From assembly GCA_964578625.1 (NCBI GenBank), contig CAZODQ010000001.1, positions 23,401 through 87,400 of the forward strand: a stretch of DNA of 64,000 bases. The letters are read 5' to 3'. The position numbers were made by a program, and so were the translations under genes. Positions 22,482 to 48,434 of this stretch are shown in pieces. The notes under the pieces are model-generated. The model saw only the letters and a program-made list of their open reading frames with translations. It did not search any database and had not been told where the DNA came from. The stretch is from an uncultured Actinomycetota bacterium. GTDB taxonomy: Bacteria; Actinomycetota; Humimicrobiia; Humimicrobiales; Humimicrobiaceae. The stretch's first letter is position 1. The number at the start of each line of letters is the position of its first letter.

Positions 22482-22983
22482 TAGACGGCTTTTCCACTTG
22501 GCGTTTAGCTTCATGTTTAAACCTTTTGTATTTTACTGCAAATCTCAACCTAATAGATGAACCAATGGAAATTCCAAGCCATAAAGACCAAATAATATTA
22601 TTGGAAAAGAAATAATAAACAAGGTCTGAGACAGTTAAGTCTGTACCAAAGAACTTAACCGCTATCAGATTAACAGCACCTGTGCCGTTGAGTATTAAAG
22701 CAAGAGCTGGAATAAAACCCACTATTAGAAACACCTTGATATCAAAATAATTCCTTTTAGCTTTGGGTTTCATAGTAAGAATTATTAAAAGCCCGATCAT
22801 AAAACCAATAATAAAAACAATAAAATATCTCAGGAGACTCAAGTAACCAGCAGATATATTATAACCAGCAAAGGCATCCAATATATTATCAAAGTAGGCA
22901 AAGCCCGCATAGTAAAGAATTATGTTTATAAAACTGAATACCGTTAGAAAAACTCTCATTTTCTTCCAGCTGATAATATACAT
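22435..22983 (-). CDS. Small polytopic (about 4-TM) membrane protein of unknown family
   Basis: 182 aa. Paralog of 24939..25418 (shared MR[VI]FL..FSFIN...IIWSLWLGISIGSSIRL-type motifs). Its 3' end overlaps the 3' end of the convergent gene 20499..22481 by 47 nt. Confidence 0.5.
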   Translation of the reverse strand: MYIISWKKMRVFLTVFSFINIILYYAGFAYFDNILDAFAGYNISAGYLSLLRYFIVFIIGFMIGLLIILTMKPKAKRNYFDIKVFLIVGFIPALALILNGTGAVNLIAVKFFGTDLTVSDLVYYFFSNNIIWSLWLGISIGSSIRLRFAVKYKRFKHEAKRQVEKPSTTGIENLDLHQYWKN

Positions 22984-23158: not shown

Positions 23159-24937
23159 ATGAAAACAGTAACCATAATAACCATAATTTTATTTCTGACA
23201 GCATCAATTTTTCTTGGGATTGTAGTCTTCAAATATATTGGAACTAAAATATTTTCTGATACGGAGATTTCCGAAATAGAGCAAAATATTCCAGAACAGG
23301 ATATTCCGACAGTAGCTGAAGAAAATGAGGAGGAAGTTGAAAAGGAAGTTGAAATAGACACTGAAGATATAGCCGCAGTAGAAATATATCTCGATGGTAA
23401 CAGCGAAAACGGCATCTTTTTAGGAGAGGCATCATACGGAACTACCTCCGAAGAAGCTTCTATTATCTATGGTGAAGACTTTTCAGATTCCGGTTTTCTT
23501 CTTTCTTTAGATAATAAAGGTTATGTTTTTGAACCGGGTTCGATCCACTACCTTTATGTATACACTTCAATACCAAAATATGGGTGGGATTACATCCGTA
23601 AAAAGATTTCGATCCCAGGAGAAACAGACTACGATGATAGTATTCAATTCTCTATAGATGACCCATCACATAATACAATAATAAAAGGAGCCGATAAAGC
23701 CAATATACGTGTATCCGGCTGGTCAGTGGACCTTGATCATTTAGATTCTACCGGTATTGATAGAATAGAAGTATATTTAAACGGGCCAAGGGGCTTTGGA
23801 AAATCCGAAGGTCCTGTGGATTATGGAATTGAACGGTCGGATGTGGCCAATGCATTTCAAAACGCAAATTATACCAATTCGGGTTATTCCCTTTATTTCG
23901 ATGGGAGTCAACTTGAAGACGGGAGCGAAAATACCCTATATATTTATTACTATTCCACCTCTGGTACTTATTCTTTAGCTATGGTGGATTTTAAAATAGA
24001 AGGTGAGGAAAAAGAATCCAATGCTGTAATCTCAATAGAAGATTATGATTTTAATGATCAGATTATAGAAATAATTGGATGGGCTACAAATAAAGATTGG
24101 ATACTGGAAGGTAGACCCCCACGAAGCCTGGACGTAGAATATTCTACTAAAAAAATAGTCTTCACTTCCAATATGAATGGTAATGAAGATATATTCAGTA
24201 TGAATATAGATGGTTCTGAACTTACTCAATTAACAGATTATCCAGGAAAAGATAATTACCCTGCTGTTTCTCCAGATGGGGAAAAAATTGCATATACCTC
24301 GGACATTAACGGCACATGGCAGATCATGGTCATGAACTGGGATGGAACAGAAAAGGTACAGCTTACCCATAATCCCTGGAGAAGCGGATATCCAGCCTGG
24401 TCTTTTGATGGAAGATTTATCTACTTTGAAGCAGCCCCGGAGGGAGATTATGAAATATACAGAATAGACAGCGACGGAAGTAATATGAAACGGCTTACAT
24501 TCAATCCAAACATTGATGACTGGCATCCCTATGGTCATCCTTTCCAATATAAAGTCATTTACGAATCCGGAGCATCAAGAAACGAGGACCTTTACATAAT
24601 GGATTATGATGGTAAAAATATTAAAAGGATTTCTGATATAAATATGAGGAAAAGAGTCCCTGCAATTTCAGTTGATGGAAAATTAATTGTTTTTAGTGAT
24701 AATTCTTCTATCTATACTATGGACAGTAATGGAGAAAATATAAAAAAAATTACCGAAAACCTTGCGAATTGCAGACATCCCGATATCTCACCTGATAATA
24801 ATTATATAACTTTTGAGGGCGGTGCCGAGGGACAGGAAGATATATATATTGTTAATCTTAACGGTTCAAACCCTGTAAAGCTGACTAATTTTCCAGGGAC
24901 TGATTATGATCCCTCTTTTATGTATCAGACACCTTAA
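23159..24937 (+). CDS. Paralogous membrane-anchored TolB-like PD40 beta-propeller surface protein
   Basis: 592 aa. Same architecture as 20499..22481: TM (VTIITIILFLTASIFLGIVVF), short acidic stretch, two ~85-aa repeats (VEIYLDGNSENGIFLGE..., IEVYLNGPRGFGKSEG...), PD40 blades (FTSNMNGNEDIFSMNIDG, TSDINGTWQIMVMNWDG, FDGRFIYFEA, SPDNNYITFEG). Confidence 0.7.
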   Translation: MKTVTIITIILFLTASIFLGIVVFKYIGTKIFSDTEISEIEQNIPEQDIPTVAEENEEEVEKEVEIDTEDIAAVEIYLDGNSENGIFLGEASYGTTSEEASIIYGEDFSDSGFLLSLDNKGYVFEPGSIHYLYVYTSIPKYGWDYIRKKISIPGETDYDDSIQFSIDDPSHNTIIKGADKANIRVSGWSVDLDHLDSTGIDRIEVYLNGPRGFGKSEGPVDYGIERSDVANAFQNANYTNSGYSLYFDGSQLEDGSENTLYIYYYSTSGTYSLAMVDFKIEGEEKESNAVISIEDYDFNDQIIEIIGWATNKDWILEGRPPRSLDVEYSTKKIVFTSNMNGNEDIFSMNIDGSELTQLTDYPGKDNYPAVSPDGEKIAYTSDINGTWQIMVMNWDGTEKVQLTHNPWRSGYPAWSFDGRFIYFEAAPEGDYEIYRIDSDGSNMKRLTFNPNIDDWHPYGHPFQYKVIYESGASRNEDLYIMDYDGKNIKRISDINMRKRVPAISVDGKLIVFSDNSSIYTMDSNGENIKKITENLANCRHPDISPDNNYITFEGGAEGQEDIYIVNLNGSNPVKLTNFPGTDYDPSFMYQTP

Positions 24938-24938: not shown

Positions 24939-25418
24939 TTACTTGGAATTTTCCTTTTCAGTTTTATCAATTGACATATGCCTGTATACTCTACCAGAAA
25001 AACTGAAGCGTACCGATGAACCTACGGCAAAACCAAACCATAATGACCAGATAGCCTGTCTTGAGAAAAGATAAAACACCATTTCGCTTAACTTTTCACT
25101 TGAGTTGAAAAATTTATTTATAATAAAACCGGTAATAGTACCCTCGGACAGTATAAGACAGATAAACGGAATAATTCCAATAATTATAAGGTTTTTAAAA
25201 CTAAAAAGACTTTTCTCTATATTTAACCGCATTATAAGCATTATACTTACACCCATACAAAATCCGACAATTAAAAGTGCTGTCAGTTTGATATAATTAG
25301 CCGCTGTCGGAGATAAATTCACTGCTCCCAATATTTCCAAAATCTTATCAAAAAAAGAATATATAAGAATATAAAAAATGGTATTAATAAAAGAAAATAT
25401 TATTAAAAAAATCCTCAC
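24939..25418 (-). CDS. Small polytopic membrane protein, paralog of 22435..22983
   Basis: 159 aa. Conserved segments with 22435..22983 (MRIFLIIFSFIN..., AIWSLWFGFAVGSSVRF). Lies 1 nt from the stop of the convergent propeller gene. Confidence 0.5.
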   Translation of the reverse strand: MRIFLIIFSFINTIFYILIYSFFDKILEILGAVNLSPTAANYIKLTALLIVGFCMGVSIMLIMRLNIEKSLFSFKNLIIIGIIPFICLILSEGTITGFIINKFFNSSEKLSEMVFYLFSRQAIWSLWFGFAVGSSVRFSFSGRVYRHMSIDKTEKENSK

Positions 25419-25488: not shown

Positions 25489-27309
25489 CTAAAGCCTCTG
25501 TCCAACACTGCCGAGATAATGAGAGACATAACTAAAAACCGTATGGGCAACAACTGAAGCTCCAGCCGGACTGTAATGCATTCCGTCAACAAGATACTCT
25601 CCCGGATTCTGTGACAGCGGAGTCATTACATCTATAACTACCACCCCATGTTTTGCAGCAATCTGTTTAATTATTTCGTTATATTTTGGATATCCTTCTT
25701 TACCAGACCGATATATAGGACCGATAAGATTAATAAATACCCTGGCACCCAGATTCTTTGCCTTAATGATCAAACCTTCAATATTGTGATCAAATCCCGA
25801 ATATCTGGGACCGACATCATTAGTTCCATAGGCAATTATGATTATATCAGGATGGTATACAGATACAGTACTATCAAATCTTTCATAGCCACCACCTGAC
25901 ATCTCGCCACCCTTTCCACTGGCAATGGTATTGTATTCTGCATATGGATAATTAGCCTCCAGGAGCCCGTCAAACGTTTGTACCCAGTTAGACATTTCTA
26001 TTAAAGAATCGCCCATCGCAACAATAGTCAGGTTAACATTTCCTTTGACATTAAGACTTTTAGACGGCAGCTCAATTTCTCCATTGCCGTCTTCAATTTT
26101 AAAATGAGTGGTAATCGTGCCCCCCGTATTGACCAGGTTATCATTTATCTTCATACTGAAAGTTATTTCTTTTTCCTCTCCCATACCCAGATCTTGTAAA
26201 TCCCATATAAGGCCCCTTATGTCATCACTCCATCTAATTCCTTCTGCAGTACCCGACCTGCTAATATAAGTAGCTTCAGCAGGTATGGGACAAATAACTC
26301 TATAATTTTCCTCTTTCTTATCACCAGTATTTCTAACCATAATTTTTACACCTATGGTTTCACCAGGCCAAAGTTCTCTGCCATTTGTATCATATATATA
26401 ATCTTCCGATGTACTTAAATCAGAAAAAAGACTTAACTCTTCCTCTACCGACTTTTCTATAACTGTTGATCCATATTTTAAAGTACCCTGATTAGTTATG
26501 AGTTCATCACCGTTTAAGTCATCTTTTACCTTGACTTCGAAGGAAAAAGTCCTGGGTTTATTTATTTCTATATTATTAACTTTCCATAATACATAATTAT
26601 CCTTATATTCACCTAACCCGGTGATAGAATTTTCAATTATATTCACATATTCCGATAGATCGCTTCTAATTTCTACATCAGAAGCATCCATATCACCGGT
26701 ATTTTCTACTGTCAGATTATATTGTATAACATCACCCAGCATAACAATGTCGCCGTTTTCATCAATAGCTTCTAATTTGAAATTATTTAGATTAGGACTG
26801 CTTTCAATCTTACTGACCAGATCCGCACCAATATCATCATTAAATGAATCTCTCCCCGCTCCGTATCTAAATTTCACTTTATCCAGTTCAATCAAAGTAC
26901 CATTGTCCAGCGGCTTATCCGCCTCCACTATGAAATTAATGCTGTCTCCTTCATTTCTTTTAACATTTCCAATTTCAAAATCCAGAGTTCTATCATCATT
27001 TGTTAAAGTACTGTTATGGTCCGATGATACAAAAAAAGTATTATCCGGTACCTCAAGTTCTATTACCAAATCCTCTATATTTCTGTTTCCTGTATTCTTA
27101 AAGTTTATTGTGTATGTTATTTCCTCACCGGGTTTTAAATATTCACCCTGATCACTGTATATAAAATTAGATTGTCTATCACCAAAAATTGGTTTGGCAA
27201 GATAAATTTTAAAATAATAAAAGACACCAAATGATATCACAATAAATATGACTATAAGATAAATCCATCTTCTATCACTTTTTATATAATTTAAAAATCT
27301 CTTAAACAT
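25489..27309 (-). CDS. Membrane-anchored protein with DUF11/CARDB-like repeats and C-terminal SGNH (GDSL) hydrolase domain
   Basis: 606 aa. N-terminal TM (WIYLIVIFIVISFGVFYYF). Repeats of the type GEEITYTINFKNTGNRNIEDLVIELEVPDNTFF and GDVIQYNLTVENTGDMDASDVEI. The C-terminal region has GDS-block (VAMGDSLIE), GTND block and a DGMHYS DxxH block of SGNH esterases. Confidence 0.65.
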   Translation of the reverse strand: MFKRFLNYIKSDRRWIYLIVIFIVISFGVFYYFKIYLAKPIFGDRQSNFIYSDQGEYLKPGEEITYTINFKNTGNRNIEDLVIELEVPDNTFFVSSDHNSTLTNDDRTLDFEIGNVKRNEGDSINFIVEADKPLDNGTLIELDKVKFRYGAGRDSFNDDIGADLVSKIESSPNLNNFKLEAIDENGDIVMLGDVIQYNLTVENTGDMDASDVEIRSDLSEYVNIIENSITGLGEYKDNYVLWKVNNIEINKPRTFSFEVKVKDDLNGDELITNQGTLKYGSTVIEKSVEEELSLFSDLSTSEDYIYDTNGRELWPGETIGVKIMVRNTGDKKEENYRVICPIPAEATYISRSGTAEGIRWSDDIRGLIWDLQDLGMGEEKEITFSMKINDNLVNTGGTITTHFKIEDGNGEIELPSKSLNVKGNVNLTIVAMGDSLIEMSNWVQTFDGLLEANYPYAEYNTIASGKGGEMSGGGYERFDSTVSVYHPDIIIIAYGTNDVGPRYSGFDHNIEGLIIKAKNLGARVFINLIGPIYRSGKEGYPKYNEIIKQIAAKHGVVVIDVMTPLSQNPGEYLVDGMHYSPAGASVVAHTVFSYVSHYLGSVGQRL

Positions 27310-27399: not shown

Positions 27400-27780
27400 C
27401 TAATTCTTTATGTTCATTTCAATATCATCACAATCAATATAATTATCACGATAAGTTGCCCTGAACTTTATTAAAGAATTACCGGGAGTGCTGCCCTTAA
27501 GTTTCACAATTAGATTAATCTTACCGTTCCCTTTTATTACATATGAATCACTTACCCACATATATATACCATTACTCAAGCCGGGATACTGATTAATATA
27601 TCCATCAAGGCTTACTCCTTCAAATCCAATATTATCCGGGAGTTCTAATTCGAGAGAACTGATTTTAGCATCATACTCATTGGTGTTTCTTATAATATAT
27701 TCAACAGTAAATTCCTCTCCGATTTCCTTGGTATAATCGTCAACCATATATTCAATTTTGATACTCCTATCCAGATTTAA
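27400..27780. repeat. About 0.38-kb DNA-level repeat (copy 1) encoding the shared DUF11-like C-terminal domain
   Basis: Nucleotide similarity is visible between 27400-27780 and 29013-29395. For example, 27548-27600 cccacatatatataccattactcaagccgggatactgattaatatatccatcaagg matches 29166-29222 cccacatatacataccccggctcaagccaggatcctgatcaatatatccggaagg. Confidence 0.7.
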
Positions 27781-28992
27781 ATAATTAACATATTGATCGG
27801 GTGGAATATAGCTATTAAATTCTACTCTTTTTATGTTATTGAGATTAATCGTTCTCATATCTTCAATTCCGCCCCAGTATCTTACTGCACCCCTATAACC
27901 CGCTTCCGGAATTAAATGCCATTTTGAGGAAGAATTATTATCATAAGGCCATGCAAAAAATAGAACTTCATTTCCCAGGTGTGATTCTATATCCTCCTTT
28001 GATTGGGTGAGTTCATATAAAAACTCATCATCAGTAGCAAGGCCCAATCTTACATGATTTACTGTATGTGATAAAAACTCACATCCATACTCATACATCT
28101 CTTCGATTTCAGGCCATATAAGTATCGGCCTTATTACATCAGTTCTCTTATTAAAATAAGCATTTGTCTTTCTTTCAGCTTCCGTTTCCCCGATTGCTCC
28201 GGTGACCAGAAAAACAGTCATCTTATACCCATACTTTTTAAGAATGGGAAACCCATTGGTGTAAACATCCTGGAATCCATCATCAGAGGTTATGATCACC
28301 GGCCTTTCGGGCAGTGCTTTACCAAAGTCTATATAATTTAAAACATCAGTAAAGGTAATGGTTTCATATCCGTATTCTTTTAATACCTTACACAATCTAT
28401 CGAAATGGCTGGTATACAGTTCTATTGCAGCTCCAATATCATCCTCTATAGCATGTAATCCTATTATTGGAATAAAATTCCCTTCAAAATGCTTAACACC
28501 ATAAACCATTATGCCATAATCAGGACTTGTAAAAGAATCCACTTCGTCTGAAGATATTTCCAGCCTGCACCATGCCAGTATGTCTTCAGTTATCTTATCC
28601 GTTAAAGTCAGAGTGGTATTAAAAGTAATCCTCTCCCCCGCATCCAGAACATCAACATTCCAGCTGGTTTCTTTCCCGTTGGATATAAAGAAATTGTCGT
28701 AAGTAAGGTCGACTTTTACATTGTTTACCTTTATACCGCCGTTATTTAAAACAGTTACATTTACCTCTAATTTTTCACCGGGATATGTGTCACCGCCATT
28801 TATATCCACAAATTCTACAGTGGAACCGGTAAATGACGGAAATAACTCTTCGGCAATACTACTGCTATTATCCCTGCCGCTAATTCCGGCAAGTAAGGAA
28901 CAGCTGACAAGAATCACTAAAATAATTATTATAAAAACGGATAATATAAATATATTAATTCTTTTTTTAGGATTTTTCTTCAGAAACATCAT
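27400..28992 (-). CDS. Polysaccharide deacetylase (CE4/NodB) with N-terminal TM, CARDB-like domain and C-terminal DUF11-like domain
   Basis: 530 aa. CE4 motifs ITSDDGFQD (TFDDG-type) and HTVNH. The C-terminal ~120 aa (GEEFTVEYIIRNTNEYDAKISSLELELPDN...) are about 60% identical to the C-terminus of 29013..30902. Confidence 0.7.
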   Translation of the reverse strand: MMFLKKNPKKRINIFILSVFIIIILVILVSCSLLAGISGRDNSSSIAEELFPSFTGSTVEFVDINGGDTYPGEKLEVNVTVLNNGGIKVNNVKVDLTYDNFFISNGKETSWNVDVLDAGERITFNTTLTLTDKITEDILAWCRLEISSDEVDSFTSPDYGIMVYGVKHFEGNFIPIIGLHAIEDDIGAAIELYTSHFDRLCKVLKEYGYETITFTDVLNYIDFGKALPERPVIITSDDGFQDVYTNGFPILKKYGYKMTVFLVTGAIGETEAERKTNAYFNKRTDVIRPILIWPEIEEMYEYGCEFLSHTVNHVRLGLATDDEFLYELTQSKEDIESHLGNEVLFFAWPYDNNSSSKWHLIPEAGYRGAVRYWGGIEDMRTINLNNIKRVEFNSYIPPDQYVNYLNLDRSIKIEYMVDDYTKEIGEEFTVEYIIRNTNEYDAKISSLELELPDNIGFEGVSLDGYINQYPGLSNGIYMWVSDSYVIKGNGKINLIVKLKGSTPGNSLIKFRATYRDNYIDCDDIEMNIKN

Positions 28993-29012: not shown

Positions 29013-29395
29013 TTAATCTGTTATTTCCATTTCAATATCATCACAGTTAACATAAACCTCATTTGTAGTCAACCTAAACTTAATAGGTGACTTTCCCGGC
29101 TTGGTACCCCTAAGTTCTACAATTAAATTTATTTCATCTTCTCCCTCAATAACATATGAATCACTGACCCACATATACATACCCCGGCTCAAGCCAGGAT
29201 CCTGATCAATATATCCGGAAGGAATTGTTCCTATAAATTTAATATTATCCGGAAGCTCCAGTTCAAGCGAGCTGATTTTAATGCTTTTTTTATTCTTATT
29301 ACTGATTATATATTCAACGGTAAATTCCTCACCATATTTTCTACTGTAACTATCGCTGTAGTAATCTATTTCCACATTCACGACAGTTTCATTGA
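29013..29395. repeat. About 0.38-kb DNA-level repeat (copy 2) encoding the shared DUF11-like C-terminal domain
   Basis: See copy 1. The encoded peptides share GEEFTVEYII.N.N...KISSLELELPDNI.F....GYI.Q.PGLS.G.YMWVSDSYVI.G...INLIV.L.G..PG.S.IKFR.....Y..CDDIEM.I. Confidence 0.7.
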
Positions 29396-30902
29396 CCTTA
29401 TAAAGTTTTAATGTTTCATCGTATCTATCCCAGGTATAAGTTTTTCCTACCTGTTCGGCATCAAATATGGATAACAATGCATTATTATTGCCTACAAAAT
29501 ATACAGTAATGCCGTCATCCAGAGATTTAATCATATCCTCAACCGTATATTCAGGAACCTTATGAGAAATATACTCTATATTTTTTTCACCATATTCATA
29601 TCGATCTACAAACATTCCTATATTGGTTGATTTCGCCAGAACATATACTTTGGAATTACTCTCCATGTTACTGAAAGCTTCGTCCCAGAATTTGTAAACA
29701 TCCGGGGGCTCCGAAAGATCAAGTTTATTATAATTTTTCATAATAAAGTATAATGGCAGAAAAGTAAAAAATAAGATCAATATGACCATTACAAAATATT
29801 TTAAAAAGTTACTAATTTTCGGGATTTTACTGTTCTTAATCAATTTATCAAAAAGAAATATTGACCTATTTAGTATAAATAACATTCCAAATGCTATATA
29901 AAAAGAAAAAACAATCATGGAATTAAGCAGATAATTACGGAGCGCATGACCTGCGTAAAGAGGTGGTATAATAAAATTTAAAATTACCAGCAAAAATGTA
30001 CAAAGGCTAAACTTTAAATTTTTTCTAATTAAAAAGATAAATCCTATCAACGCTATAATTAGAAGTACGATACCATAACTCTGGTAAACCATATTAAGAT
30101 AATCTTTCAATACCTTGAGGATCAATGAAAGATTTTTATCACCAAAACTTCCTCCATGAAGTTCACCTGTTACTTCCCTCCCCATTATATAATAAAAAAA
30201 TCTCAAAGGAGTGGTTACTCCTCCATAACCTTGAAGGGACCTTATAGGAAGATATAAATATGATAGAAGAGGTAGAATAAAATATAATATACTGAGAAGG
30301 ATTGCCTTAATGCTTTTAAAAATCCGTGGATTTACAATAATTACATATAAAACAATGGCCGGAACCAGAAAAAAAGCAAGAGGATGATTGGTCAAACTTA
30401 AACCGAGACAGAAAGAGAAAAAATATAAATATTTTCTTGTTTTATTTTCTTTATAAATAATTGCCGAAAAAAACAACAAAACTATAAAAAAACTGTTTAA
30501 TGTATCAAATTCCAGCCTATTTGCCACTTCCCAGAAAGGCACAATAAAAGCAAATATCATAGAGCTTATAAAGCTTATAAACTCATTTTTTACCAGTTTA
30601 TTTATTGAAAGAAATAAAAATAATAGGGTAAGCGCACCAAATACTGCAGAAAAAAGATTAAGCCTGTAAGCAAGATCAGCAATAGGTAAAAAAGTGAAAA
30701 GTTTCTCCAATAAGGAGAAGGTCGGATACCCGGTGGGCACCATTAAACTCATTTCAGTAACCTGAAGTGCATACCAGCTGGTATCTCCCCCGATTAATTT
30801 ATGCTCCAATGTGAGTATATAAATAACTAGTGGTATAAGAAAAGAGAAAACCGCAAATATGACTTTTTTCTTACCAATAAGGAATTCTTTGATTTTTTGC
30901 AT
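29013..30902 (-). CDS. GT-C superfamily integral membrane glycosyltransferase (ArnT/PMT-like or DUF2723-like) with C-terminal extracytoplasmic DUF11-like domain
   Basis: 629 aa. About 11 hydrophobic segments in the first ~400 aa, with an early Asp-containing loop (IGGDTSWY) as in GT-C enzymes that use polyprenyl-phosphate sugar donors. The C-terminal soluble domain is shared with the CE4 protein. Confidence 0.5.
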   Translation of the reverse strand: MQKIKEFLIGKKKVIFAVFSFLIPLVIYILTLEHKLIGGDTSWYALQVTEMSLMVPTGYPTFSLLEKLFTFLPIADLAYRLNLFSAVFGALTLLFLFLSINKLVKNEFISFISSMIFAFIVPFWEVANRLEFDTLNSFFIVLLFFSAIIYKENKTRKYLYFFSFCLGLSLTNHPLAFFLVPAIVLYVIIVNPRIFKSIKAILLSILYFILPLLSYLYLPIRSLQGYGGVTTPLRFFYYIMGREVTGELHGGSFGDKNLSLILKVLKDYLNMVYQSYGIVLLIIALIGFIFLIRKNLKFSLCTFLLVILNFIIPPLYAGHALRNYLLNSMIVFSFYIAFGMLFILNRSIFLFDKLIKNSKIPKISNFLKYFVMVILILFFTFLPLYFIMKNYNKLDLSEPPDVYKFWDEAFSNMESNSKVYVLAKSTNIGMFVDRYEYGEKNIEYISHKVPEYTVEDMIKSLDDGITVYFVGNNNALLSIFDAEQVGKTYTWDRYDETLKLYKVNETVVNVEIDYYSDSYSRKYGEEFTVEYIISNKNKKSIKISSLELELPDNIKFIGTIPSGYIDQDPGLSRGMYMWVSDSYVIEGEDEINLIVELRGTKPGKSPIKFRLTTNEVYVNCDDIEMEITD

Positions 30903-30939
30903 ATATACTCCTTAAAACAATTTCTTTTATCAAAGCAAC

Positions 30940-31278
30940 CTATAAATTAAATATTATGACTCCTGCAATAACCAAAATATTTCCTAAAACCCTTAATCTG
31001 TCAACATCTTCTTTAAGAACTCTCCATGAAAACAACATAACAAAAAAGTAGCTTAATGCAGTAAAAGAATAAAAATTTGAAAAATCAATCACTCTCATAG
31101 TGATTATGGAAAGTATTGGAACCAGTAAAAATAAAAATATGCTTATCAATAGATATTTATTCTTAAAATTATAAATTAAAGGCTTTTTAAAATCTAACCT
31201 GATAGCTCCCATTTTAAGAATAACCTGAGCCAGAGCGACCAGTAACTGGATAGTGACTGCTAAAAAAATATAAAGCAT
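30940..31278 (-). CDS. Small 4-TM DMT/SMR-like membrane protein (ArnE/ArnF-like)
   Basis: 112 aa. ...WRVLKEDVDRLRVLGNILVIAGVIIF. Adjacent to a second paralog and to GT-C and GT2 genes. Confidence 0.5.
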   Translation of the reverse strand: MLYIFLAVTIQLLVALAQVILKMGAIRLDFKKPLIYNFKNKYLLISIFLFLLVPILSIITMRVIDFSNFYSFTALSYFFVMLFSWRVLKEDVDRLRVLGNILVIAGVIIFNL

Positions 31279-31281
31279 ATA

Positions 31282-31656
31282 TCAGACTCCTTCCAGCTTT
31301 TTACTGGACATGGTTATAATAATAACTCCGGACACTATTACAGCGGAACCTATTATTTTCATTAAAGTGATGTCTTCCCCAAATAAAATCTTCCCCAAAA
31401 ACAATGAAAAAAAGTAATTTAAACTTAAGAACGGATATATAAAAGACAGCTGAAATTTTCTATGCAGAATAAGCCAGAATGTAAATTTCAAACCGTAGGT
31501 CAGTATAAGAACAGATAACCAAAGGATAAAAATACTTGAGATATTAAGATTTATACCAATATATTTACCCGCTATTATACTTAATAAACTAATGCTGATA
31601 TTAAGGATGATTATAAGGATATAAAAAAATTTTTTACTGGTGTCTCTAAATTTCAT
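31282..31656 (-). CDS. Small 4-TM DMT/SMR-like membrane protein (ArnE/ArnF-like)
   Basis: 124 aa. ...ILFGEDITLMKIIGSAVIVSGVIIITMS. Forms a pair with 30940..31278, like ArnE/ArnF heterodimers. Confidence 0.5.
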   Translation of the reverse strand: MKFRDTSKKFFYILIIILNISISLLSIIAGKYIGINLNISSIFILWLSVLILTYGLKFTFWLILHRKFQLSFIYPFLSLNYFFSLFLGKILFGEDITLMKIIGSAVIVSGVIIITMSSKKLEGV

Positions 31657-31901
31657 CTTTTATTTTTTAATGATTTAAATCAAATAAACATCGTGAAACA
31701 CATTTTATATCAGAATTAATTAAATTATAAGTTTTTTTTATAGTGTATATAAAAGCATAAAAAAATCTTAAAGCCTATTATTTTTTGTGTTATAGTTATA
31801 AAATTATTTAAATTGAACAACAGTAAAATATCTTACATACGGACAATCTTTTATTCAATTGTAACTGAGTTATAAATAAGAGTCTTGATAACAAAATTAA
31901 T

Positions 31902-32858
31902 ATGATAAAGAAATTATTAGTGGCAATTCCTGCCTACAATGAAGAAGAAAAAATAGGTGAAGTAATACAAAACACCCCAAAAAAAATTGAAGGTGTATCT
32001 AAAGTCCATATACTGGTTATTGATGATGGCAGCACAGATAAAACTGTAAAAATTGCCAGGGGTTTACGTGCAGAAGTTATAAAAAATTATCACAATATGG
32101 GATACGGAGTAGCGTTTGGCAAAGCCCTGCAATATGCAGTGGATCATGACTTTGATTTAATGGTCAGTATTGACGGAGATGCTCAATTTGATCCAAAAGA
32201 TATTCCCAAACTTATTAGTCCGATTATAAAAGATGAAGCCGATCTGGTAACTGCATCAAGATTTATCAATAAAAGCTATTACCCTAAAATGCCTTTATCC
32301 AAATTCTGGGGGAATAAGTTAATGTCAATTTTAATCAGTAAACTGATCGGTAAAAAATTTTATGACGTCTCATGCGGATTCAGAGCATACTCACAAAAAA
32401 CTCTGCTTTCGCTAAATCTTCATGGAAAATTTACTTTTTCTCAAGAAACCTTTATTGACCTGTCATTCAAAGGGCTGAAGATCCTGGAAATCCCTATAAA
32501 GGTCAGATACTTTCCTTCACGAGTTTCAAAAATTTCCTCTAATCTTTTCACATATGGAATAAATGCTCTTAAAATTATTATTGAGACTTACCGTGACTAT
32601 AAGCCGTTTACTTTTTTTTCCTATATTGCCCTCTTCTTTTTTATAATAAGTATCTTTTTCGGATCAATTTTACTGTATACATATATTTCAATAGGATCAT
32701 TCCATCCAAATGTCTGGTCAGGATTTGTGGGAGGTACTTTCCTTTTTATCTCCATTATTTTTTTTATAGTCGGCATATCAGCAGATATAATCAAAAGAAT
32801 AAGAGTTAACCAGGAAGAAATTTTATATCTCTTAAAAAGAAATTCTCAAAGAAAATAA
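31902..32858 (+). CDS. GT2 polyprenyl-phosphate sugar synthase (ArnC/DPM1/GtrB-like) with C-terminal TM helices
   Basis: 318 aa. LVAIPAYNEEEKI...VIDDGSTDKT...DGDAQFD and two C-terminal TM helices (FFSYIALFFFIISIFFGSILLY; FLFISIIFFIVGISADI), the ArnC/GtrB architecture. Confidence 0.75.
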   Translation: MIKKLLVAIPAYNEEEKIGEVIQNTPKKIEGVSKVHILVIDDGSTDKTVKIARGLRAEVIKNYHNMGYGVAFGKALQYAVDHDFDLMVSIDGDAQFDPKDIPKLISPIIKDEADLVTASRFINKSYYPKMPLSKFWGNKLMSILISKLIGKKFYDVSCGFRAYSQKTLLSLNLHGKFTFSQETFIDLSFKGLKILEIPIKVRYFPSRVSKISSNLFTYGINALKIIIETYRDYKPFTFFSYIALFFFIISIFFGSILLYTYISIGSFHPNVWSGFVGGTFLFISIIFFIVGISADIIKRIRVNQEEILYLLKRNSQRK

Positions 32859-33155: not shown

Positions 33156-34553
33156 ATGAAGATATTTCTTTTATTTACTGAGATAAATCAAAAATTCGGA
33201 CCTTTATACTATCAGCATGGGCTGGCTTCTATTTCAGCCTTACTTAAAAAAAATGGAGTCCGATCCATCTCTCTAATACACTTTACCAGGGAACCCAATC
33301 TTAAAAAATGGGAGTCGCATATTAAGGAACAAAAACCAGACTTAATAGGTATTTATTCGACAACAGAGCAGTTTCACTTCATAAAGGGACTTGTCGGTAA
33401 AGTCCCCCGGGGCATATTTACAATTTGCGGAGGACCACACCCCACCTCTTATCCAATGTGCATTGAAGATATTCCACGATTGGATGCAATTTGTATAGGA
33501 GAGGGAGAGTATCCCGTATTAGAACTGGTAAATTCTTTAAAAGAAGGCAGAGATTATAGCAAGATAAAGAATCTATGGGTCAGAAAAGATGGGAATATTA
33601 TAAGGAATAAAACAAGACCGTTTATAACTGATTTAAATGAACTCCCATTTGAAGACCGTGAACTTTTCAATCACCAGAAATCGATTGACAAGTATGGTTT
33701 TGCACAGGTGCGGGTATTAACAACCAGAGGCTGCCCATACCAATGTACTTATTGTGCAAACAGGCAGATAAGTAAATCTCAGCCCGGAAGTTATGTCCGC
33801 TTCCGTTCTGCTGTACATATCATGGATGAGTTAAATTACCTTAATAGAAAGTATAAGTTCAAGGAAATCTTCTTTGATGACGATATTTTTATGATGAATA
33901 GAACAATCCGCAAGAAATTTTGTGAAAGATATCCAATGGAAATTGGCAAACCTTTCGTTTTCAGCGGATATATTAATATTTGCAATGAAGAAATGCTAAA
34001 AGAACTGAGAGAAGCAGGCGGGCGTAGAATCGATTTTGGTGTAGAATCCGGTAATGAGGAACTGCGGCAAAAAATCTTAAAGAGGAATATGACAGACATA
34101 CAAATTTTAGAAACTGCAAACATGGCCAGGAGAATCGGATTTCAGATTAAAACTCTGAACATGGTCGGGCTTCCCGGAGAAACCATTGAGAAACATCTGG
34201 ACACTGTAAATCTGAACAATGAAATAAAACCGGACGTAGCAAGCATATTCATATTCTATCCTTATCCCGGTACAGAATTATATGAATATTGTATCAAAAA
34301 GGGATATTTTAATCCTGATGAACCTCTGCCCAAAGGGTATATTTCACGGAGAAATTCATTACTTGATCTTCCTGATTTTTCTAGAAATGATATCGCGAAA
34401 TGTTTCCAGAGATTTGGGTTCCGTGTTTTTAAGAAGATTTCTGTAATGAAAGCTATTGAATATGCTGTCATATATTCTAAACATGGTGAACTTATTATGA
34501 GGATTACTTCAAAGCTTCGGAATATAATCATTAAGTTACTGCCAGGATTTTAA
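33156..34553 (+). CDS. B12-binding domain radical SAM protein (class B radical SAM)
   Basis: 465 aa. N-terminal cobalamin-binding-like Rossmann region (IGIYSTTEQF...ICGGPHPTSYP...DAICIGEGE) followed by the radical SAM cluster motif CPYQCTYC. Confidence 0.75.
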   Translation: MKIFLLFTEINQKFGPLYYQHGLASISALLKKNGVRSISLIHFTREPNLKKWESHIKEQKPDLIGIYSTTEQFHFIKGLVGKVPRGIFTICGGPHPTSYPMCIEDIPRLDAICIGEGEYPVLELVNSLKEGRDYSKIKNLWVRKDGNIIRNKTRPFITDLNELPFEDRELFNHQKSIDKYGFAQVRVLTTRGCPYQCTYCANRQISKSQPGSYVRFRSAVHIMDELNYLNRKYKFKEIFFDDDIFMMNRTIRKKFCERYPMEIGKPFVFSGYINICNEEMLKELREAGGRRIDFGVESGNEELRQKILKRNMTDIQILETANMARRIGFQIKTLNMVGLPGETIEKHLDTVNLNNEIKPDVASIFIFYPYPGTELYEYCIKKGYFNPDEPLPKGYISRRNSLLDLPDFSRNDIAKCFQRFGFRVFKKISVMKAIEYAVIYSKHGELIMRITSKLRNIIIKLLPGF

Positions 34554-34602: not shown

Positions 34603-35643
34603 TCAAATATTTTGATTTTTATGATCATTTGATATTTCCGGTTTTATTCTTTTAGACCTGCCTTCAAAATAGGGTCTTGCAGTATATATAATTCCCCCCA
34701 GTACTCCCATTAGAACTATCATAAACAATATCAGAAGAGAACATAAAGCAGCTTTCTCGTTAGTAACCCCCATAGCTACCAGAATAAAGACCAGAGAATT
34801 TTCCCTCAATCCGATACCGCCAATGGAAATGGGGATCATGGCTATTATTGCCACTATCGGCACAATAAAAATAAATGCGGTCAAGCTTAGGTTTATTCCT
34901 AGGGCTCTGGCTGCTAAAAACCAGTTAAGTATAACTGAAAACTGAAGAAGAAAACTGAATACCAGCACTACGACAAGAGCTTCCTTATACTTTTTAAAAC
35001 TCAACAGGGTCTTATAAACATTAGACAGCTTTTCATTTATTTTACGCATAAATTTAAACTTATTGGAAATCTTACCCAATCCGAAAAAAGAAGGATTGAT
35101 AATAAGGAAAGCTATGATCACAGTTATTACGAAAAATATGACAATTGGAATTATTACCGACCGGTGGCCGATAGCCGTAAATCCTAAAAATAAAGCTATA
35201 ACCGCATAAATAGCTGCGCTTACCACTCCGGAAAATCTTTCAACTATGATCACTGAAACAGATTTTCCCATAGGAATGTCAGCTTTTTTTGAAGCATCAT
35301 AACTCCTGAATACATCTCCTCCTATACTGGTAGGTAAAAAATTATTAAAAAAAGAGCCAATAAGAACTGTAACACTCAATGAAGCAGTACTTAATCTTAC
35401 ATCCTGCGTATTTAAAAGAACCTTCCATCTCACAGCAGTTATATAGGTCCCCAGAGCATGAGTGGAGAGCGAAAGTAAAAGTAAGACTTTATTTGATGAT
35501 TTCAAAATCTCAATTATACTGGAGAAATCTTTCATTTGTGTCTTAACCAGAAAAGCAATAAGGGAAGCACTGATTATGACTCTGGCTAAAAGAAGTATTA
35601 TCTTCTTATTTTTTATGTAAAAAGAGACGATCCTATTTTTCAT
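34603..35643 (-). CDS. Flippase-like polytopic membrane protein (LPG_synthase_TM / PF03706-like)
   Basis: 346 aa, about 8 TM. Central NFLPTSIGGDVFRSY motif characteristic of this family. Paralogs at 41009..42025 and 50496..51581. Confidence 0.55.
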   Translation of the reverse strand: MKNRIVSFYIKNKKIILLLARVIISASLIAFLVKTQMKDFSSIIEILKSSNKVLLLLSLSTHALGTYITAVRWKVLLNTQDVRLSTASLSVTVLIGSFFNNFLPTSIGGDVFRSYDASKKADIPMGKSVSVIIVERFSGVVSAAIYAVIALFLGFTAIGHRSVIIPIVIFFVITVIIAFLIINPSFFGLGKISNKFKFMRKINEKLSNVYKTLLSFKKYKEALVVVLVFSFLLQFSVILNWFLAARALGINLSLTAFIFIVPIVAIIAMIPISIGGIGLRENSLVFILVAMGVTNEKAALCSLLILFMIVLMGVLGGIIYTARPYFEGRSKRIKPEISNDHKNQNI

Positions 35644-35666
35644 TTTTAATCGAATCAGCTGTTTAA

Positions 35667-36410
35667 TTATTTTCTAAATTTGGCAACTCTTGCGGGTACT
35701 CCTGCAGCTATAGAGAAAGGCGGAATATCTTTTGAAACTACAGCGCCTGCTGCAATAATGGTATCTTTTCCAATAATAATACCGTCAAAAATCAAAGCGC
35801 CTGCACCTATCCAGCAATTCTTTTTTATCTTTATGCCATAAGAAGGCTTTTCCTGCTCAGATATGGGAACATCTATTCTGGAATACTCATGTCCACCACC
35901 AATAATATAAACATATGCGGAAATTAATGTATTTTCACCAATGGTTACATTACTTGCCGAAATTATCTCACAGTTAAATCCTATAACTACATTTTTTTCC
36001 AGTACTATATCGCCATTTTTACAGCTTAATATACTGCCTCTGCCTATAAAAATATTTCTTCCTATGCTAATTCCATTGTTGTCCAGTCCTTTGGCATCGA
36101 GAACACAATAATCATCTATTACTACATTATCTTCAATGGATATTTTATGAGGATGCCTTATAGTTACAGACTTCCCAAAACTGACTCCCTTCCCTACTTT
36201 CTTAAAAAGCAAGGGAAAGAATAAATTTCTAAAAAAGATACCAATAGCTCCAGGCATGTCCTGAAACAGTGTAATTATCAATTCATATTTCAGTAAACTA
36301 AAAAAACCTTTTTTCCCTACAAATAAATCTATATATTTGGCAATTTTTGACCTATCTCTGGCAAAAAGCGTTTTCTGTATCTTGTCTTCATATTTTTCTA
36401 TTTCAATCAA
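35667..36410 (-). CDS. Hexapeptide-repeat (left-handed beta-helix) sugar O-/N-acetyltransferase
   Basis: 247 aa. Tandem hexapeptide repeats (IGRNIFIGRGSILSC, VVIGFNCEIISASNVTIGENTLISAYVYIIGG, IGAGALIFDGIIIGKDTIIAAGAVV). Confidence 0.75.
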   Translation of the reverse strand: MIEIEKYEDKIQKTLFARDRSKIAKYIDLFVGKKGFFSLLKYELIITLFQDMPGAIGIFFRNLFFPLLFKKVGKGVSFGKSVTIRHPHKISIEDNVVIDDYCVLDAKGLDNNGISIGRNIFIGRGSILSCKNGDIVLEKNVVIGFNCEIISASNVTIGENTLISAYVYIIGGGHEYSRIDVPISEQEKPSYGIKIKKNCWIGAGALIFDGIIIGKDTIIAAGAVVSKDIPPFSIAAGVPARVAKFRK

Positions 36411-36536
36411 CTCCTTTTCCGATAATAAAGAATAAGCTCTAAAAAATTAAATAAAACACTTCTTTCCAGGACGAGTAAAACTGCAATCGGTTTAATAAAT
36501 TAAAGCTGCCTTCTTCTTTAGCTGAAATATCTTTTC

Positions 36537-37535
36537 TTAGTTTCTTAAATGATCCCTTATAAAAATTCCAAGATATTCTAAAGGAATACCCAAAAAAGAT
36601 TTCCTCCCGATCCTATCGCAATCCCTGCAGGGAACTATATTATCAATTATACTAGATTTAAATGCTTTTCTTATACTCCTTATAATTTCATTATTAAAAA
36701 TTTCATCAATCCTGCTTTCATTAATATCCCCCAGACAGATTTTACCCTCAAAATCCTGGGGACATAAGAATACCCTTCCATCATAAAATATAGTCAGCGA
36801 GTACCACGGAAAAGTGCAGGAAGTGACTTTTTTATCTTTAATTTTTTTATCAATTCCGCCTGTTTTAAACAGGCCCCCCCAATTATGAGGGGCTCTTGTT
36901 ACCATTTTATCCAGAGGAAGATCCTTAAAATTCTTTAAAAAATTTTTCTTTTGTTCTGCCAACTTTTTTTTAGATGGTCCTGACTCATTCTGTATGACCT
37001 GGATAACTGTATACGGCTTTTTTGATTTTAACTGTTTTTTTATTTTAAGAAAATCAATTATATTGGTTAAACTCTCATCAAACCTTGCACCAGACCTGTT
37101 TCTTTCATACACTTCTTTGGTATAACCATCAAATGAGAACGAAATAAAGTCCAGGCCTGCTAATATCATGTCTTTGCCAAGTTCTTTATCCAAAAGAGTA
37201 GCATTGGTATGAATTCTGGTTTTAACTCCACTTTTACCGGCATAAGCGATCATTGGTATTATATTGTTATTGAGCAGCGGCTCTCCTCTATGAAATAAAT
37301 TGACATCTTGGACTTTCCCCGCGATTTCATCGATTATTCTTTTATAAAGATCGAAACTCATATCCCCTTTTTGATATGGCAGAAGGTTTTTATTCACGCA
37401 AAACCGGCACTTTAAATTACATCTGCTTGATAATTCTATCCATATTCTGATGGGATGATAATTACAATTCGTCTTTTTAAAATAGTAATTTATATAAATC
37501 CTAAGCAGATCAAGAACACGATTTAACTTACTCAT
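36537..37535 (-). CDS. Radical SAM / SPASM-domain protein
   Basis: 332 aa. CNLKCRFC CxxxCxxC motif near the N-terminus. Cys-rich C-terminal region (TSCTFPW...LCPQD...VPCRDCDR) consistent with an auxiliary Fe-S (SPASM/twitch) domain. Confidence 0.75.
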   Translation of the reverse strand: MSKLNRVLDLLRIYINYYFKKTNCNYHPIRIWIELSSRCNLKCRFCVNKNLLPYQKGDMSFDLYKRIIDEIAGKVQDVNLFHRGEPLLNNNIIPMIAYAGKSGVKTRIHTNATLLDKELGKDMILAGLDFISFSFDGYTKEVYERNRSGARFDESLTNIIDFLKIKKQLKSKKPYTVIQVIQNESGPSKKKLAEQKKNFLKNFKDLPLDKMVTRAPHNWGGLFKTGGIDKKIKDKKVTSCTFPWYSLTIFYDGRVFLCPQDFEGKICLGDINESRIDEIFNNEIIRSIRKAFKSSIIDNIVPCRDCDRIGRKSFLGIPLEYLGIFIRDHLRN

Positions 37536-37548
37536 TATAAGTTCATAT

Positions 37549-38523
37549 TTACTTTAGAATCATTTCCTTTACCACGTATGTAGATCTATTTCGAACTTCA
37601 TGATGTACCCGCATAAGCACTTCTGCAAGAAGCCCCATAGTAATAAGCTGGATTCCTATAAAAATCATAAATATTGACAGGATAAATAACGGTCTCTCCG
37701 AAAGGGGTTGATTGAAAAATATCCTCATTATAATCAGGTAAGCAGTCATGATAAAACCAGCAGTAGCTGAAAATAATCCCAGCACTCCGAATATCTGGAT
37801 CGGACTCTGCGAATAACTTAAAAGAAATTTTACTGTGATTATATCAAGAATCACCTTTATAGTCCTGGATACTCCATATTTGGATCTTCCATACTTTCTG
37901 CTGTGATGTCTCACAGGAACCTCCGCCACCCTTACTCCCATCCAGCTTGCTATGGCAGGAATATATCGATGCATTTCACCATACAGGTCAATATTTTTTA
38001 TCACTTCTCTCTTGTATGCCTTTAGGGTGCACCCATAATCATGAAGATAAACTCCGGTAAGCTTTGATATTATTCTATTTGCAATAATTGAGGGGAACCT
38101 CCTGGTAATAGCTTTATCTTTTCTATTCACACGCCATCCGCTTACAATATCATAACCTTCATTTAACTTCTCCAGTAGAAGTGGTATATCACGTGGATCA
38201 TTTTGTAAATCTGCATCCAGAGTTATTATGACTTTGCCCTCTGCAAAATCAAAACCTGCGCTAATAGCTGATGTCTGTCCGAAATTTTTTCTAAAACTGA
38301 TGATTTTAAACAATTTATTTTCATTATTGACGTTTACAAGTTCATTAAAAGTGCCATCTGTACTTCCATCATCTATTAGCAGCACTTCATACTTCAAAGT
38401 CATCCCGGAGAGAGTTTTATAAAGTTCTTTATAAAGTTTTAAAATACTTTCTTTTTCATTATAAATAGGAATGACAATAGATAGATCAATGTCAGATTTA
38501 AGTTTTTTTGAAACTTTATTCAT
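37549..38523 (-). CDS. GT2 polyprenyl-phosphate sugar synthase (ArnC/DPM1-like) with C-terminal TM helices
   Basis: 324 aa. LSIVIPIYNEKESI...LLIDDGSTDGT...DADLQNDP, then two C-terminal TM segments. Overlaps the downstream SDR gene by 8 nt. Confidence 0.8.
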   Translation of the reverse strand: MNKVSKKLKSDIDLSIVIPIYNEKESILKLYKELYKTLSGMTLKYEVLLIDDGSTDGTFNELVNVNNENKLFKIISFRKNFGQTSAISAGFDFAEGKVIITLDADLQNDPRDIPLLLEKLNEGYDIVSGWRVNRKDKAITRRFPSIIANRIISKLTGVYLHDYGCTLKAYKREVIKNIDLYGEMHRYIPAIASWMGVRVAEVPVRHHSRKYGRSKYGVSRTIKVILDIITVKFLLSYSQSPIQIFGVLGLFSATAGFIMTAYLIIMRIFFNQPLSERPLFILSIFMIFIGIQLITMGLLAEVLMRVHHEVRNRSTYVVKEMILK

Positions 38524-43476: not shown

Positions 43477-43478
43477 CA

Positions 43479-48425: not shown

Positions 48426-48434
48426 AAAATCCCC

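Follow-up and report, generated by a model that had tools for sequence, protein, structure and literature searches.

An extracytoplasmic glycosylation module with a TMEM260-like transferase and an ArnE/ArnF-like protein pair, predicted in a wall-glycan region of an uncultured actinobacterium

Extracytoplasmic glycosylation from polyprenyl-phosphate sugars is already well described. Wall polymers are modified by three-component systems such as CsbB/GtcA/YfhO, GtlA/GtcA/GtlB and CsdAB with CflA, and Gram-positive wall polysaccharides have been described as exported first and decorated afterwards (PMC8035078). GacI/GacJ and PpgS/Rv3632 are experimentally shown polyprenyl-phosphate-sugar synthase pairs; GacJ and Rv3632, which represent the DUF2304 family, activate the synthases GacI and PpgS, whose products are used by transferases of the GT-C fold to decorate streptococcal rhamnan and mycobacterial arabinogalactan (bioRxiv 10.1101/180810). 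Human TMEM260, another GT-C enzyme, is an endoplasmic reticulum O-mannosyltransferase of protein IPT domains and the sole characterised member of its family (PMC10214176; bioRxiv 10.64898/2026.03.17.711096); among the 25 listed of 114 papers with either name, the human TMEM260 paper alone mentions DUF2723, and it notes only "distant homologs in bacteria". Here, we analysed a stretch of 64,000 nucleotides from an uncultured Actinomycetota bacterium of the Humimicrobiaceae (assembly GCA_964578625.1, contig CAZODQ010000001.1, positions 23,401 to 87,400), hereafter the window, and in it four adjacent genes at 29013-32858 that we predict to encode such a glycosylation system. The module confirms current understanding and does not overturn it. 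What is new is the family of its GT-C, the presence of an ArnE/ArnF-like pair in an actinobacterial wall-glycan context, and a C-terminal domain which the transferase shares with a neighbouring enzyme.

A first, sequence-only reading had likened the four genes to the ArnT/ArnE/ArnF/ArnC set, which adds 4-amino-4-deoxy-L-arabinose (Ara4N) to lipid A. All four open reading frames are present exactly where that reading had placed them:

31902-32858, plus strand, divergent: predicted polyprenyl-phosphate glycosyltransferase of family GT2, 318 aa, GT-A fold, with PF00535, a DxD motif and two C-terminal transmembrane (TM) helices
31282-31656, minus strand: larger SMR/DMT-like protein, 124 aa, four TM helices, predicted N-in/C-in, candidate flippase subunit
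30940-31278, minus strand: smaller SMR/DMT-like protein, 112 aa, four TM helices, predicted N-out/C-out, partner of the 124-aa protein
29013-30902, minus strand: GT-C transferase, 629 aa

We consider it fairly probable that these genes form a multi-component transmembrane glycosylation module (GT2, flippase pair and GT-C) whose acceptor is most likely the wall polysaccharide exported by the surrounding cluster. At the cytoplasmic face, the GT2 would transfer one sugar from a nucleotide sugar to polyprenyl monophosphate. The two small proteins would sit in the membrane with opposite orientations, joined as an antiparallel heterodimer in the manner of paired SMR proteins and ArnE/ArnF, and this heterodimer would move the polyprenyl-phosphate sugar to the outer leaflet. 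The GT-C would then transfer the lipid-linked sugar to an acceptor outside the membrane, its residues D40 and R242 taking part in donor binding. The acceptor would be the cell-wall polysaccharide of the surrounding 50-kb cluster, exported by Wzm/Wzt. Two further enzymes, a CE4 deacetylase and an SGNH esterase, would tailor the same polymer, and the domain common to the GT-C and the deacetylase, which we call Cdom, would keep the two together on one polymer or envelope layer. We infer each of these enzymatic steps, as well as the acceptor and the identity of the sugar, possibly a hexose.

The first component is the easiest to place. The 318-aa protein matches PF00535 with 87 bits (1.9e-24, Pfam scan), and its NCBIfam matches (AglJ 120 bits, a haloarchaeal dolichyl-phosphate-hexose transferase 86, PpgS 68, ArnC 61) all lie below the respective cut-offs. 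Against the sequences of the PDB, its residues 2-292 align with solved ArnC 9hwj at 7e-17, the three solved ArnC sequences scoring around 1e-16, and it also aligns with the Pyrococcus dolichyl-phosphate mannose synthase (DPMS) 5mlz at 1e-10. The ArnC and DPMS alignments span the DxD motif (D91-G-D93) and the membrane region, and there is a distant resemblance to the GtrB-type enzyme 5ekp (E 5e-4). Hydropathy places two C-terminal TM helices at about 242-260 and 279-297, with the catalytic domain predicted to be cytoplasmic. Because the PF00535 match, the ArnC/DPMS alignments, the DxD motif and the C-terminal helices come together, we assign this protein, as the sequence-only reading did, to the predicted polyprenyl-phosphate glycosyltransferases of the DPM1/ArnC/GtrB architectural class. 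Its sequence features are those of the membrane-associated GT-A/GT2 enzyme of multi-component glycosylation systems.

The two small proteins each have four hydrophobic segments in hydropathy plots and are paralogous (BLASTP 1e-7, hhalign 91%). Their best named models are ArnE and ArnF (E from 1e-9 to 2e-5), yet their scores are far below the cut-offs: in NCBIfam, the 124-aa protein has 38 bits against ArnE (E 1.2e-9, cut-off 92) and 34 against ArnF, and the 112-aa protein has 25 bits against ArnF (cut-off 99) and 18.5 against ArnE. EamA is matched by the 112-aa protein just above its gathering score (29.6 bits, gathering 28.2) and by the 124-aa protein below it (24.2 bits). The Pfam scan gave no match of either protein to PF00893 (SMR) or to the GtrA family (PF04138). 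When profiles of the two families were compared with PDB sequences, EmrE was the only match, in register and weak (E 0.017 for the 112-aa family, 2.3 for the 124-aa family), and these matches are too weak for us to claim SMR membership from them. With ArnE, ArnF, EamA and faintly EmrE as their only named relatives, the two proteins look SMR/DMT-like, as had been proposed, and not like members of an unrelated family. A third small EamA/ArnF-like protein, of 132 aa, is encoded at 14921-15319 on the minus strand (ArnF model 46 bits, E 7e-12), as a singleton adjoining the gene of a 469-aa GT2 (13480-14889); this protein, too, may flip a lipid-linked sugar.

Neighbouring SMR genes whose charge biases are opposite, centred on +4 and -4, encode antiparallel heterodimers of fixed topology (PMC9574504). 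We computed the Lys+Arg bias as the charges in the termini and loop 2 minus those in loops 1 and 3, with loop boundaries taken from an alignment of 28-29 sequences. The bias is +6 in the 124-aa protein (median +5 across 28 homologues) and -9 in the 112-aa protein (median -9 across 29 homologues). Hence the two adjacent genes for four-TM proteins of about 110 aa bear opposite biases, and this is the signature of a predicted antiparallel SMR heterodimer. The first TM helix is also informative, as the lipid-flipping ArnE/ArnF subtype of SMR proteins often has Asn in place of the central Glu (PMC9574504). TM1 of the 124-aa family has N23 in 27 of the 28 homologues and no Glu; the window protein itself has Ser at 23 and Asn at 19, where most homologues have Thr, so that the polar residue is apparently shifted by one helical turn. 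TM1 of the 112-aa family has an invariant Q18, again with no Glu. Because of the conserved opposite biases and the replacement of Glu by Asn or Gln in TM1, the pair fits, by analogy, a lipid-type SMR/DMT heterodimer that is not coupled to protons. A small multi-TM flippase candidate is thus encoded together with the transferases, in the form of two four-TM paralogues, flipping itself being predicted.

The GT-C consists of three parts:

29721-30902, minus strand: transmembrane core, residues 1-394, with about 11 TM helices, G38-G39-D40 in the first external loop, and R242
29376-29720, minus strand: extracytoplasmic alpha/beta domain, residues 395-509, at the position of the Rossmann-like "palm" of TMEM260
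29016-29375, minus strand: C-terminal beta-sandwich (Cdom), residues 510-629, of CLIPPER/DUF11-like fold

It belongs to the TMEM260-like family PF11028 (82 bits, 5.7e-23, cut-off 24.2) and also matches PMT_2 (31 bits, 3e-7); the NCBIfam scan gave no match, and homologues carry the name "DUF2723 domain-containing protein" in public sources. Human TMEM260 (9rql) is the only significant match among PDB sequences, at 6.6e-20 with the single sequence and 2.9e-22 with a profile of 37 members, over TMH1-7. Hydropathy and an AlphaFold 2 (AF2) model (predicted local distance difference test, pLDDT, 85; predicted template modelling score 0.73) agree on about 11 TM helices followed by an extracytoplasmic tail of 240 aa. 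Within the tail, helices and strands alternate over 401-506 with pLDDT of about 85-95. The structure paper lists D52, H67, R264, Y267, R355 and D441 as essential in TMEM260, and D52 corresponds to PMT1 D77 (PMC10214176; bioRxiv 10.64898/2026.03.17.711096). D40 of the GGD motif (codon at 30783-30785) aligns with D52 and is invariant in 37 homologues, and R242 aligns with R264, the DLL Arg, and is conserved in at least 90% of them. For Y267, R355 and D441 the alignments gave no counterpart. Both the Asp and the DLL Arg of TMEM260 are thus present, and the acidic residue in an external loop, whose lack would have spoken against a GT-C, is there in a protein of GT-C fold. We obtained no sequence alignment of residues 395-509 to the Rossmann-like domain of TMEM260, which holds D441, and 9rql was absent from the matches of both fold searches with the GT-C model. 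Foldseek placed ArnT first (E 1.5e-6, TM-score 0.47/0.53), followed by STT3/PglB, ALG9/12, DPY19 and PMT; AftA, AftB, AftD and PimE were also among the fold matches. The earlier description of this protein as an ArnT-type GT-C membrane transferase therefore holds for the GT-C part, on PF11028, PMT_2 and fold, and fails for the ArnT family: since TMEM260 is its sole significant sequence relative with a structure and ArnT appears in Foldseek alone, it is predicted to be ArnT-like at the level of fold only, and by sequence a DUF2723/TMEM260-family enzyme.

Conservation ties these components together. Homologues of the GT-C come from metagenome-assembled genomes (MAGs) of Actinomycetota and Candidatus Hydromicrobium. 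The GT-C relatives P0046 and P0076 were used for synteny. In a scan of one genome per species we found 52 loci, all from Actinomycetota MAGs except for a few labelled only "bacterium" and one Pirellulales; Candidatus Humimicrobiaceae and Candidatus Humimicrobium oleiphilum UBA1414 (Candidatus Humimicrobiia) are among them. The genes for the 318-aa GT2, the 124-aa protein, the 112-aa protein and the GT-C occur in the same order in about 26 loci, with GT-C identities of 53-80%. Five further short contigs have the small gene or genes, the GT2 region being lost at the contig end. Two loci, L003 and L004, keep the four-gene set despite different flanking genes. Because the order recurs in about 26 loci, including some with different flanks, the arrangement is more than chance, and the conserved linkage typical of multi-component glycosylation systems is present. 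The same L003 (8286-9050) and L004 (2135-2899), relatives at 62% identity, have a gene for a 254-aa nucleotide-sugar dehydrogenase between the GT2 and small-protein genes; it lacks the C-terminal UDP-binding domain and may be a truncated gene or a hint to the donor sugar. One MAG carries two GT-Cs, 73% and 45% identical to the window protein (L056 and L042), and at 3934-7755 of L046 two tandem DUF2723-Cdom GT-Cs, 43% and 41% identical to it, lie downstream of a short GT2, indicating a paralogue expansion of the TMEM260-like transferase.

In other loci part of the set is replaced. In 11 loci (L054, at 4646-6743, L023, L030, L031, L034, L036, L037, L039, L044, L052 and L055), where the GT-C is 44-62% identical, the small pair and the 318-aa GT2 are both missing, and a soluble GT2 of 228-242 aa followed by a DUF2304 protein is found instead. 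The small pair and DUF2304 never co-occur; across 55 loci, each supply module excludes the other. In L054 (GT-C 62% identical), the short GT2 and the DUF2304 protein are accompanied by an MprF-type LPG_synthase_TM "flippase-like" protein; the family of the MprF TM domain has been predicted to act as a flippase in glycosylation pathways, near GT-C and AglD-like genes (PMC5898192). This swap supports the view that the GT-C would consume a polyprenyl-phosphate monosaccharide, and that the small pair would belong to the supply side, i.e. to synthesis and flipping.

What the transferase might act upon is suggested by the genes that follow it on the same strand, listed here after the divergent intergenic region:

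31657-31901, no strand: AT-rich divergent intergenic region, 245 bp, between the GT2 gene and the small-protein/GT-C operon
27400-28992, minus strand: membrane-anchored polysaccharide deacetylase of family CE4, 530 aa, carrying a CARDB-like domain at the N-terminus and Cdom at 27403-27762
25489-27309, minus strand: membrane-anchored protein, 606 aa, in which three DUF11/CLIPPER repeats are combined with a C-terminal SGNH/GDSL esterase domain, the last conserved gene of the apparent operon

The minus-strand gaps are 3 bp between the genes of the 124-aa and 112-aa proteins, 37 bp from there to the GT-C gene, 20 bp to the CE4 gene and 90 bp to the GDSL gene. Gaps this small are consistent with one apparent operon of five genes. 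The CE4 gene, which begins 20 bp past the GT-C stop, follows the GT-C in about 25 loci; its product has PF01522 at 7.6e-23 and CARDB in Pfam, with PgaB/IcaB models below their cut-offs. The 606-aa protein (DUF11 at 1.1e-26 in three stretches, Lipase_GDSL_2 at 4.3e-17) is conserved downstream of it. A promoter and terminator scan of 24.8-34.8 kb gave as many matches as shuffled sequence, promoter-like ones in the divergent region 31657-31901 included, and we therefore make no promoter or other regulatory claim; a tRNA scan of the window found none. On the other side, 298 bp downstream of the GT2 gene and on its strand, lies a gene for a B12-binding radical-SAM enzyme (33156-34553, plus strand; best match HpnJ-like, 155 bits, below cut-off), which roughly half of the close relatives have at that spot and others, e.g. 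L010-L013, lack. Beyond the GDSL gene, two N-terminally anchored PD40/Tricorn-like beta-propeller proteins (20499-22481 and 23159-24937) are encoded, each gene being followed by a convergent small three-TM gene with no Pfam match (22435-22983 and 24939-25418), a layout that is conserved in L001.

Cdom links the GT-C to the deacetylase in a second way. GT-C residues 510-629 share 62% identity with the last 120 residues of the CE4 protein (E 5e-43) and are weakly similar to one DUF11 repeat of the GDSL protein; no Pfam model matches them at E<=1, and the AF2 model and fold search give an all-beta sandwich, CLIPPER/cohesin-like. A word-indexed search with the 120 residues returned 10 fragments only, so we used an exhaustive hidden Markov model (HMM) search of 1.84 billion cluster representatives, which returned only 58 matches, C-terminal in nearly all of those below 1e-10. 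The ten longer ones, typed with Pfam, were three CE4 deacetylases (531-557 aa), three DUF2723 GT-Cs (617-711 aa) and four proteins with no Pfam match. Because Cdom is limited to two extracytoplasmic, carbohydrate-active enzymes with adjacent genes, it is best read as a shared module for substrate binding or localisation. In the GT-C it occupies the C-terminal position at which TMEM260 has its TPR domain.

All this lies within a single glycan region, at about 9.7-63.6 kb of the window, which encodes many GT2 and GT4 enzymes, some of them polymerase-like with two domains, as well as an RmlD equivalog (295 bits, cut-off 224), a WcaF-like acetyltransferase and two radical-SAM enzymes. At 57947-63650 on the minus strand are genes for Wzm, for a Wzt that bears the carbohydrate-binding domain Wzt_C, for two GT4 enzymes and for a 405-aa coiled-coil-like/methyltransferase protein that resembles a WbdD-type chain terminator. 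Because Wzm, Wzt with Wzt_C and the coiled-coil methyltransferase stand among glycan genes, the region bears the predicted signature of an ABC-transporter-dependent polysaccharide, whose chain end would receive a cap and be recognised prior to export. The CE4 and SGNH enzymes are membrane-anchored and extracytoplasmic and follow the GT-C on its strand, and the cluster matches the scheme described for Gram-positive wall polysaccharides (PMC8035078); the acceptor of the GT-C is thus probably the exported polysaccharide. The functional core of the first reading, the addition of a sugar to a polymer or lipid on the outer face of the membrane after export, is in this way supported, the acceptor being our own deduction.

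Other parts of the region may bear on the polymer and its sugars. At 42157-47553 (plus strand) are genes for a TviB-like UDP-GlcNAc 6-dehydrogenase (452 bits), a TviC-like 4-epimerase, a further SDR and an amidotransferase of AsnB type. Together they suggest that the polymer contains an amidated N-acetyl-hexosaminuronic acid, and the CE4 deacetylase is in keeping with this. A second Arn-like operon at 34603-39493 (minus strand) encodes an SDR epimerase/dehydratase, a GT2, an rSAM/SPASM enzyme, a WcaF-like acetyltransferase and an LPG_synthase_TM "flippase-like" (MprF-like) protein. Its GT2 (37549-38523, 250 bits, below cut-off), and not that of 31902-32858, is the closest to ArnC in the window; this conserved block may supply a second lipid-linked sugar. 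Another conserved block, at 47556-51581 (minus strand), holds genes for an LPG_synthase_TM protein (361 aa), for a protein of 438 aa and about 9 TM helices, for a 237-aa membrane protein and for RmlD, the 438-aa and 237-aa proteins having no Pfam match (E<=1 for the former). The block recurs at 3286-7271 of L003 and at 630-3567 of L021, where the DUF2723 GT-C directly follows it, and the 438-aa protein may be a GT-C that has gone unrecognised, or else a polymerase/ligase. An ordinary tryptophan biosynthesis operon (trpE, trpD, trpC, trpF, trpB, trpA; 2668-8852, minus strand) lies directly upstream of the glycan region.

Several observations weigh against the proposed module and its polysaccharide acceptor. 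The flippase role of the small pair rests on analogy only, with both proteins far below the ArnE/ArnF cut-offs and one of them below the gathering score of EamA. H67, the mannose-contacting residue of TMEM260, aligns with V55, nearly invariant in the clade of the window GT-C; the donor chemistry of TMEM260 is therefore not transferable. The D40 loop is the part of the model with the lowest confidence (pLDDT <50 at residues 36-39 and 48-57). No bacterial DUF2723 protein with biochemical data is found in the searchable literature, and the only characterised member of the family, TMEM260, has proteins and not polysaccharides as its acceptors. In L021 and L031 the GT-C occurs without the small pair, or outside a glycan cluster. 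Finally, a second polyprenyl-phosphate-type GT2 (37549-38523) and three MprF-type flippase-like genes are present in the window, so that the pairing of donor and transferase is not unique.

The alternative that survives best leaves the machinery unchanged and has the GT-C O-glycosylate Ser/Thr residues of surface proteins, such as the neighbouring DUF11/CLIPPER- and CARDB-containing enzymes or an S-layer protein, as TMEM260 does with IPT domains. We find this unlikely, though worth keeping in mind. The peptide-recognising TPR domain of TMEM260 is absent, and in its stead stands a beta-sandwich in common with a polysaccharide deacetylase; the co-transcribed partners are carbohydrate-active enzymes within a polysaccharide export cluster; and the similarity to TMEM260 lies only in the donor-binding GT-C core, which does not predict the type of acceptor. 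One might speculate further that the bacterial TMEM260 homologue is a protein O-glycosyltransferase of Ig-like envelope domains (CLIPPER, DUF11, CARDB), its own C-terminal Ig-like domain serving for docking or as a template. This is doubtful. If true, it would be a prokaryotic counterpart, and possibly the evolutionary source, of metazoan IPT-domain O-mannosylation, and the first such system with an ArnE/ArnF-type flippase.

Actinobacteria build lipoglycans with GT-Cs that depend on polyprenyl-phosphate sugars. The same machinery might act on a membrane lipid or a lipid-anchored glycan, i.e. a lipoglycan, a polymer resembling lipoteichoic acid (LTA), or a lipid-linked precursor before its ligation. 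AftA, AftB, AftD and PimE are among the fold matches of the GT-C, and in L031 the GT-C module is surrounded by housekeeping genes and not by a polysaccharide cluster. Gram-positive systems built in this way are known to modify LTA (PMC8035078), for which CsbB/GtcA/YfhO can be compared, as can the mannosylation of mycobacterial lipomannan and lipoarabinomannan. Yet we recognised no gene of a lipoglycan or LTA synthase in the window, and the tight linkage to the CE4 and SGNH genes and the shared Cdom point to a polymer substrate, which makes a lipid acceptor improbable in our view.

It is more improbable again, to the point of being a minor concern, that the four genes are not parts of a single pathway, with the small EamA-like pair as an unrelated exporter of metabolites or drugs and a GT2 that serves some other transferase. 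The small proteins are indeed weak against every named family, and the window offers other partners (the second polyprenyl-phosphate-type GT2, three MprF-like proteins and the 9-TM protein with no Pfam match). But about 26 loci, with GT-C identity as low as 53% and including some with rearranged flanks, keep all four genes adjacent and in order, the pair is swapped as a unit for another lipid-sugar synthase set, and its TM1 lacks the Glu required by proton-coupled SMR exporters (PMC9574504).

A genuine Arn system for Ara4N-lipid A, although ArnE/ArnF and ArnC are the named models and structures matched by the small proteins and the GT2 and ArnT is the top Foldseek match, is effectively refuted, since scores fall far below the equivalog cut-offs (61 against 529 bits for ArnC, NF007986, with GT2 37549-38523 also below at 250; 38 against 92 and 25 against 99 for ArnE and ArnF), the GT-C has no sequence match to the ArnT family (GT83), the relatives are Actinomycetota, not expected to make lipid A, and no ArnA, ArnB or ArnD is encoded among the window's open reading frames of at least 100 aa, where aminotransferases, formyltransferases and ArnD-type enzymes are lacking and the SDRs reach 49-64 bits against the ArnA model (cut-off 777).

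The module of GT2, small pair and GT-C that we favour gives an operon context, and hence a testable function, to the bacterial DUF2723/TMEM260-like GT-Cs, of whose family the sole characterised member is a human disease gene. With it, a pair of the ArnE/ArnF type is seen outside the Arn pathway, in an actinobacterial class that branches deeply. The swap of this pair with a GacI/GacJ-like synthase, accompanied by an MprF-type protein in L054, bears on flippase assignments that are poorly proven for both families. Cdom is a candidate module for acceptor binding or co-localisation, a feature that has been proposed for GT-C systems and is little documented. The region as a whole also provides an outline of envelope glycan biosynthesis in the uncultured Candidatus Humimicrobiia.

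How does this module compare with the named systems? With Arn it has in common the three roles, the kind of flippase (two adjacent small four-TM paralogues), a GT2 that aligns end to end with solved ArnC and a GT-C of the ArnT fold. Yet no component reaches the equivalog level, the GT-C has no sequence similarity to ArnT, and in an actinobacterial host, where no lipid A is expected, the sugar is not expected to be Ara4N. The proposed mirroring of Arn thus stands as an analogy of mechanism and falls as membership of the system. The parallel that had also been drawn with the GtrABC systems is similarly partial: the three-step logic is the same and the GT2 is distantly GtrB-like, but the set contains no GtrA-family (PF04138) protein as flippase and the GT-C is unrelated by sequence to the Gtr serotype-specific transferases.

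TMEM260 resembles the window GT-C in its 11 TM helices, its GGD motif with the essential Asp, its DLL Arg and, in the AF2 model, an alpha/beta domain after TM11. The sequence similarity is confined to TMH1-7, however, and H67 is replaced by Val. The TPR domain for acceptor recognition, a metazoan feature, was not found in the window GT-C, which has a CLIPPER-like beta-sandwich in its place. The genomic context, moreover, points to a polysaccharide acceptor, and the donor lipid is predicted to be a bacterial polyprenyl phosphate and not dolichyl phosphate.

The three-component systems of wall polymers are closer in design. They too combine a membrane GT-A/GT2 that makes a C55-P-sugar (P, phosphate), a dimeric small multi-TM flippase and an extracellular GT-C with an acidic residue in an external loop, and their genes are found within or close to clusters for wall polysaccharides that leave the cell by ABC export. 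Here, the flippase candidate is an ArnE/ArnF-like SMR/DMT heterodimer instead of a GtrA-type or Wzx protein, and the GT-C is TMEM260-like/DUF2723 instead of YfhO or a generic PMT_2, with an extra beta-sandwich in common with a CE4 deacetylase. Relative to GacI/GacJ/GacK/GacL of Streptococcus pyogenes and PpgS/Rv3632/Rv3779 of M. tuberculosis, the window has as synthase a single TM-anchored GT2 with no DUF2304 partner, as flippase candidate an SMR-like pair and not Wzx, and a GT-C of another family. The overall scheme is nevertheless alike, a rhamnose-type polysaccharide exported by an ABC transporter and decorated outside by a GT-C from a polyprenyl-phosphate monosaccharide, and in relatives such as L054, L031 and L055 a GacI-like short GT2 and a GacJ-like DUF2304 protein are encoded right beside the GT-C.

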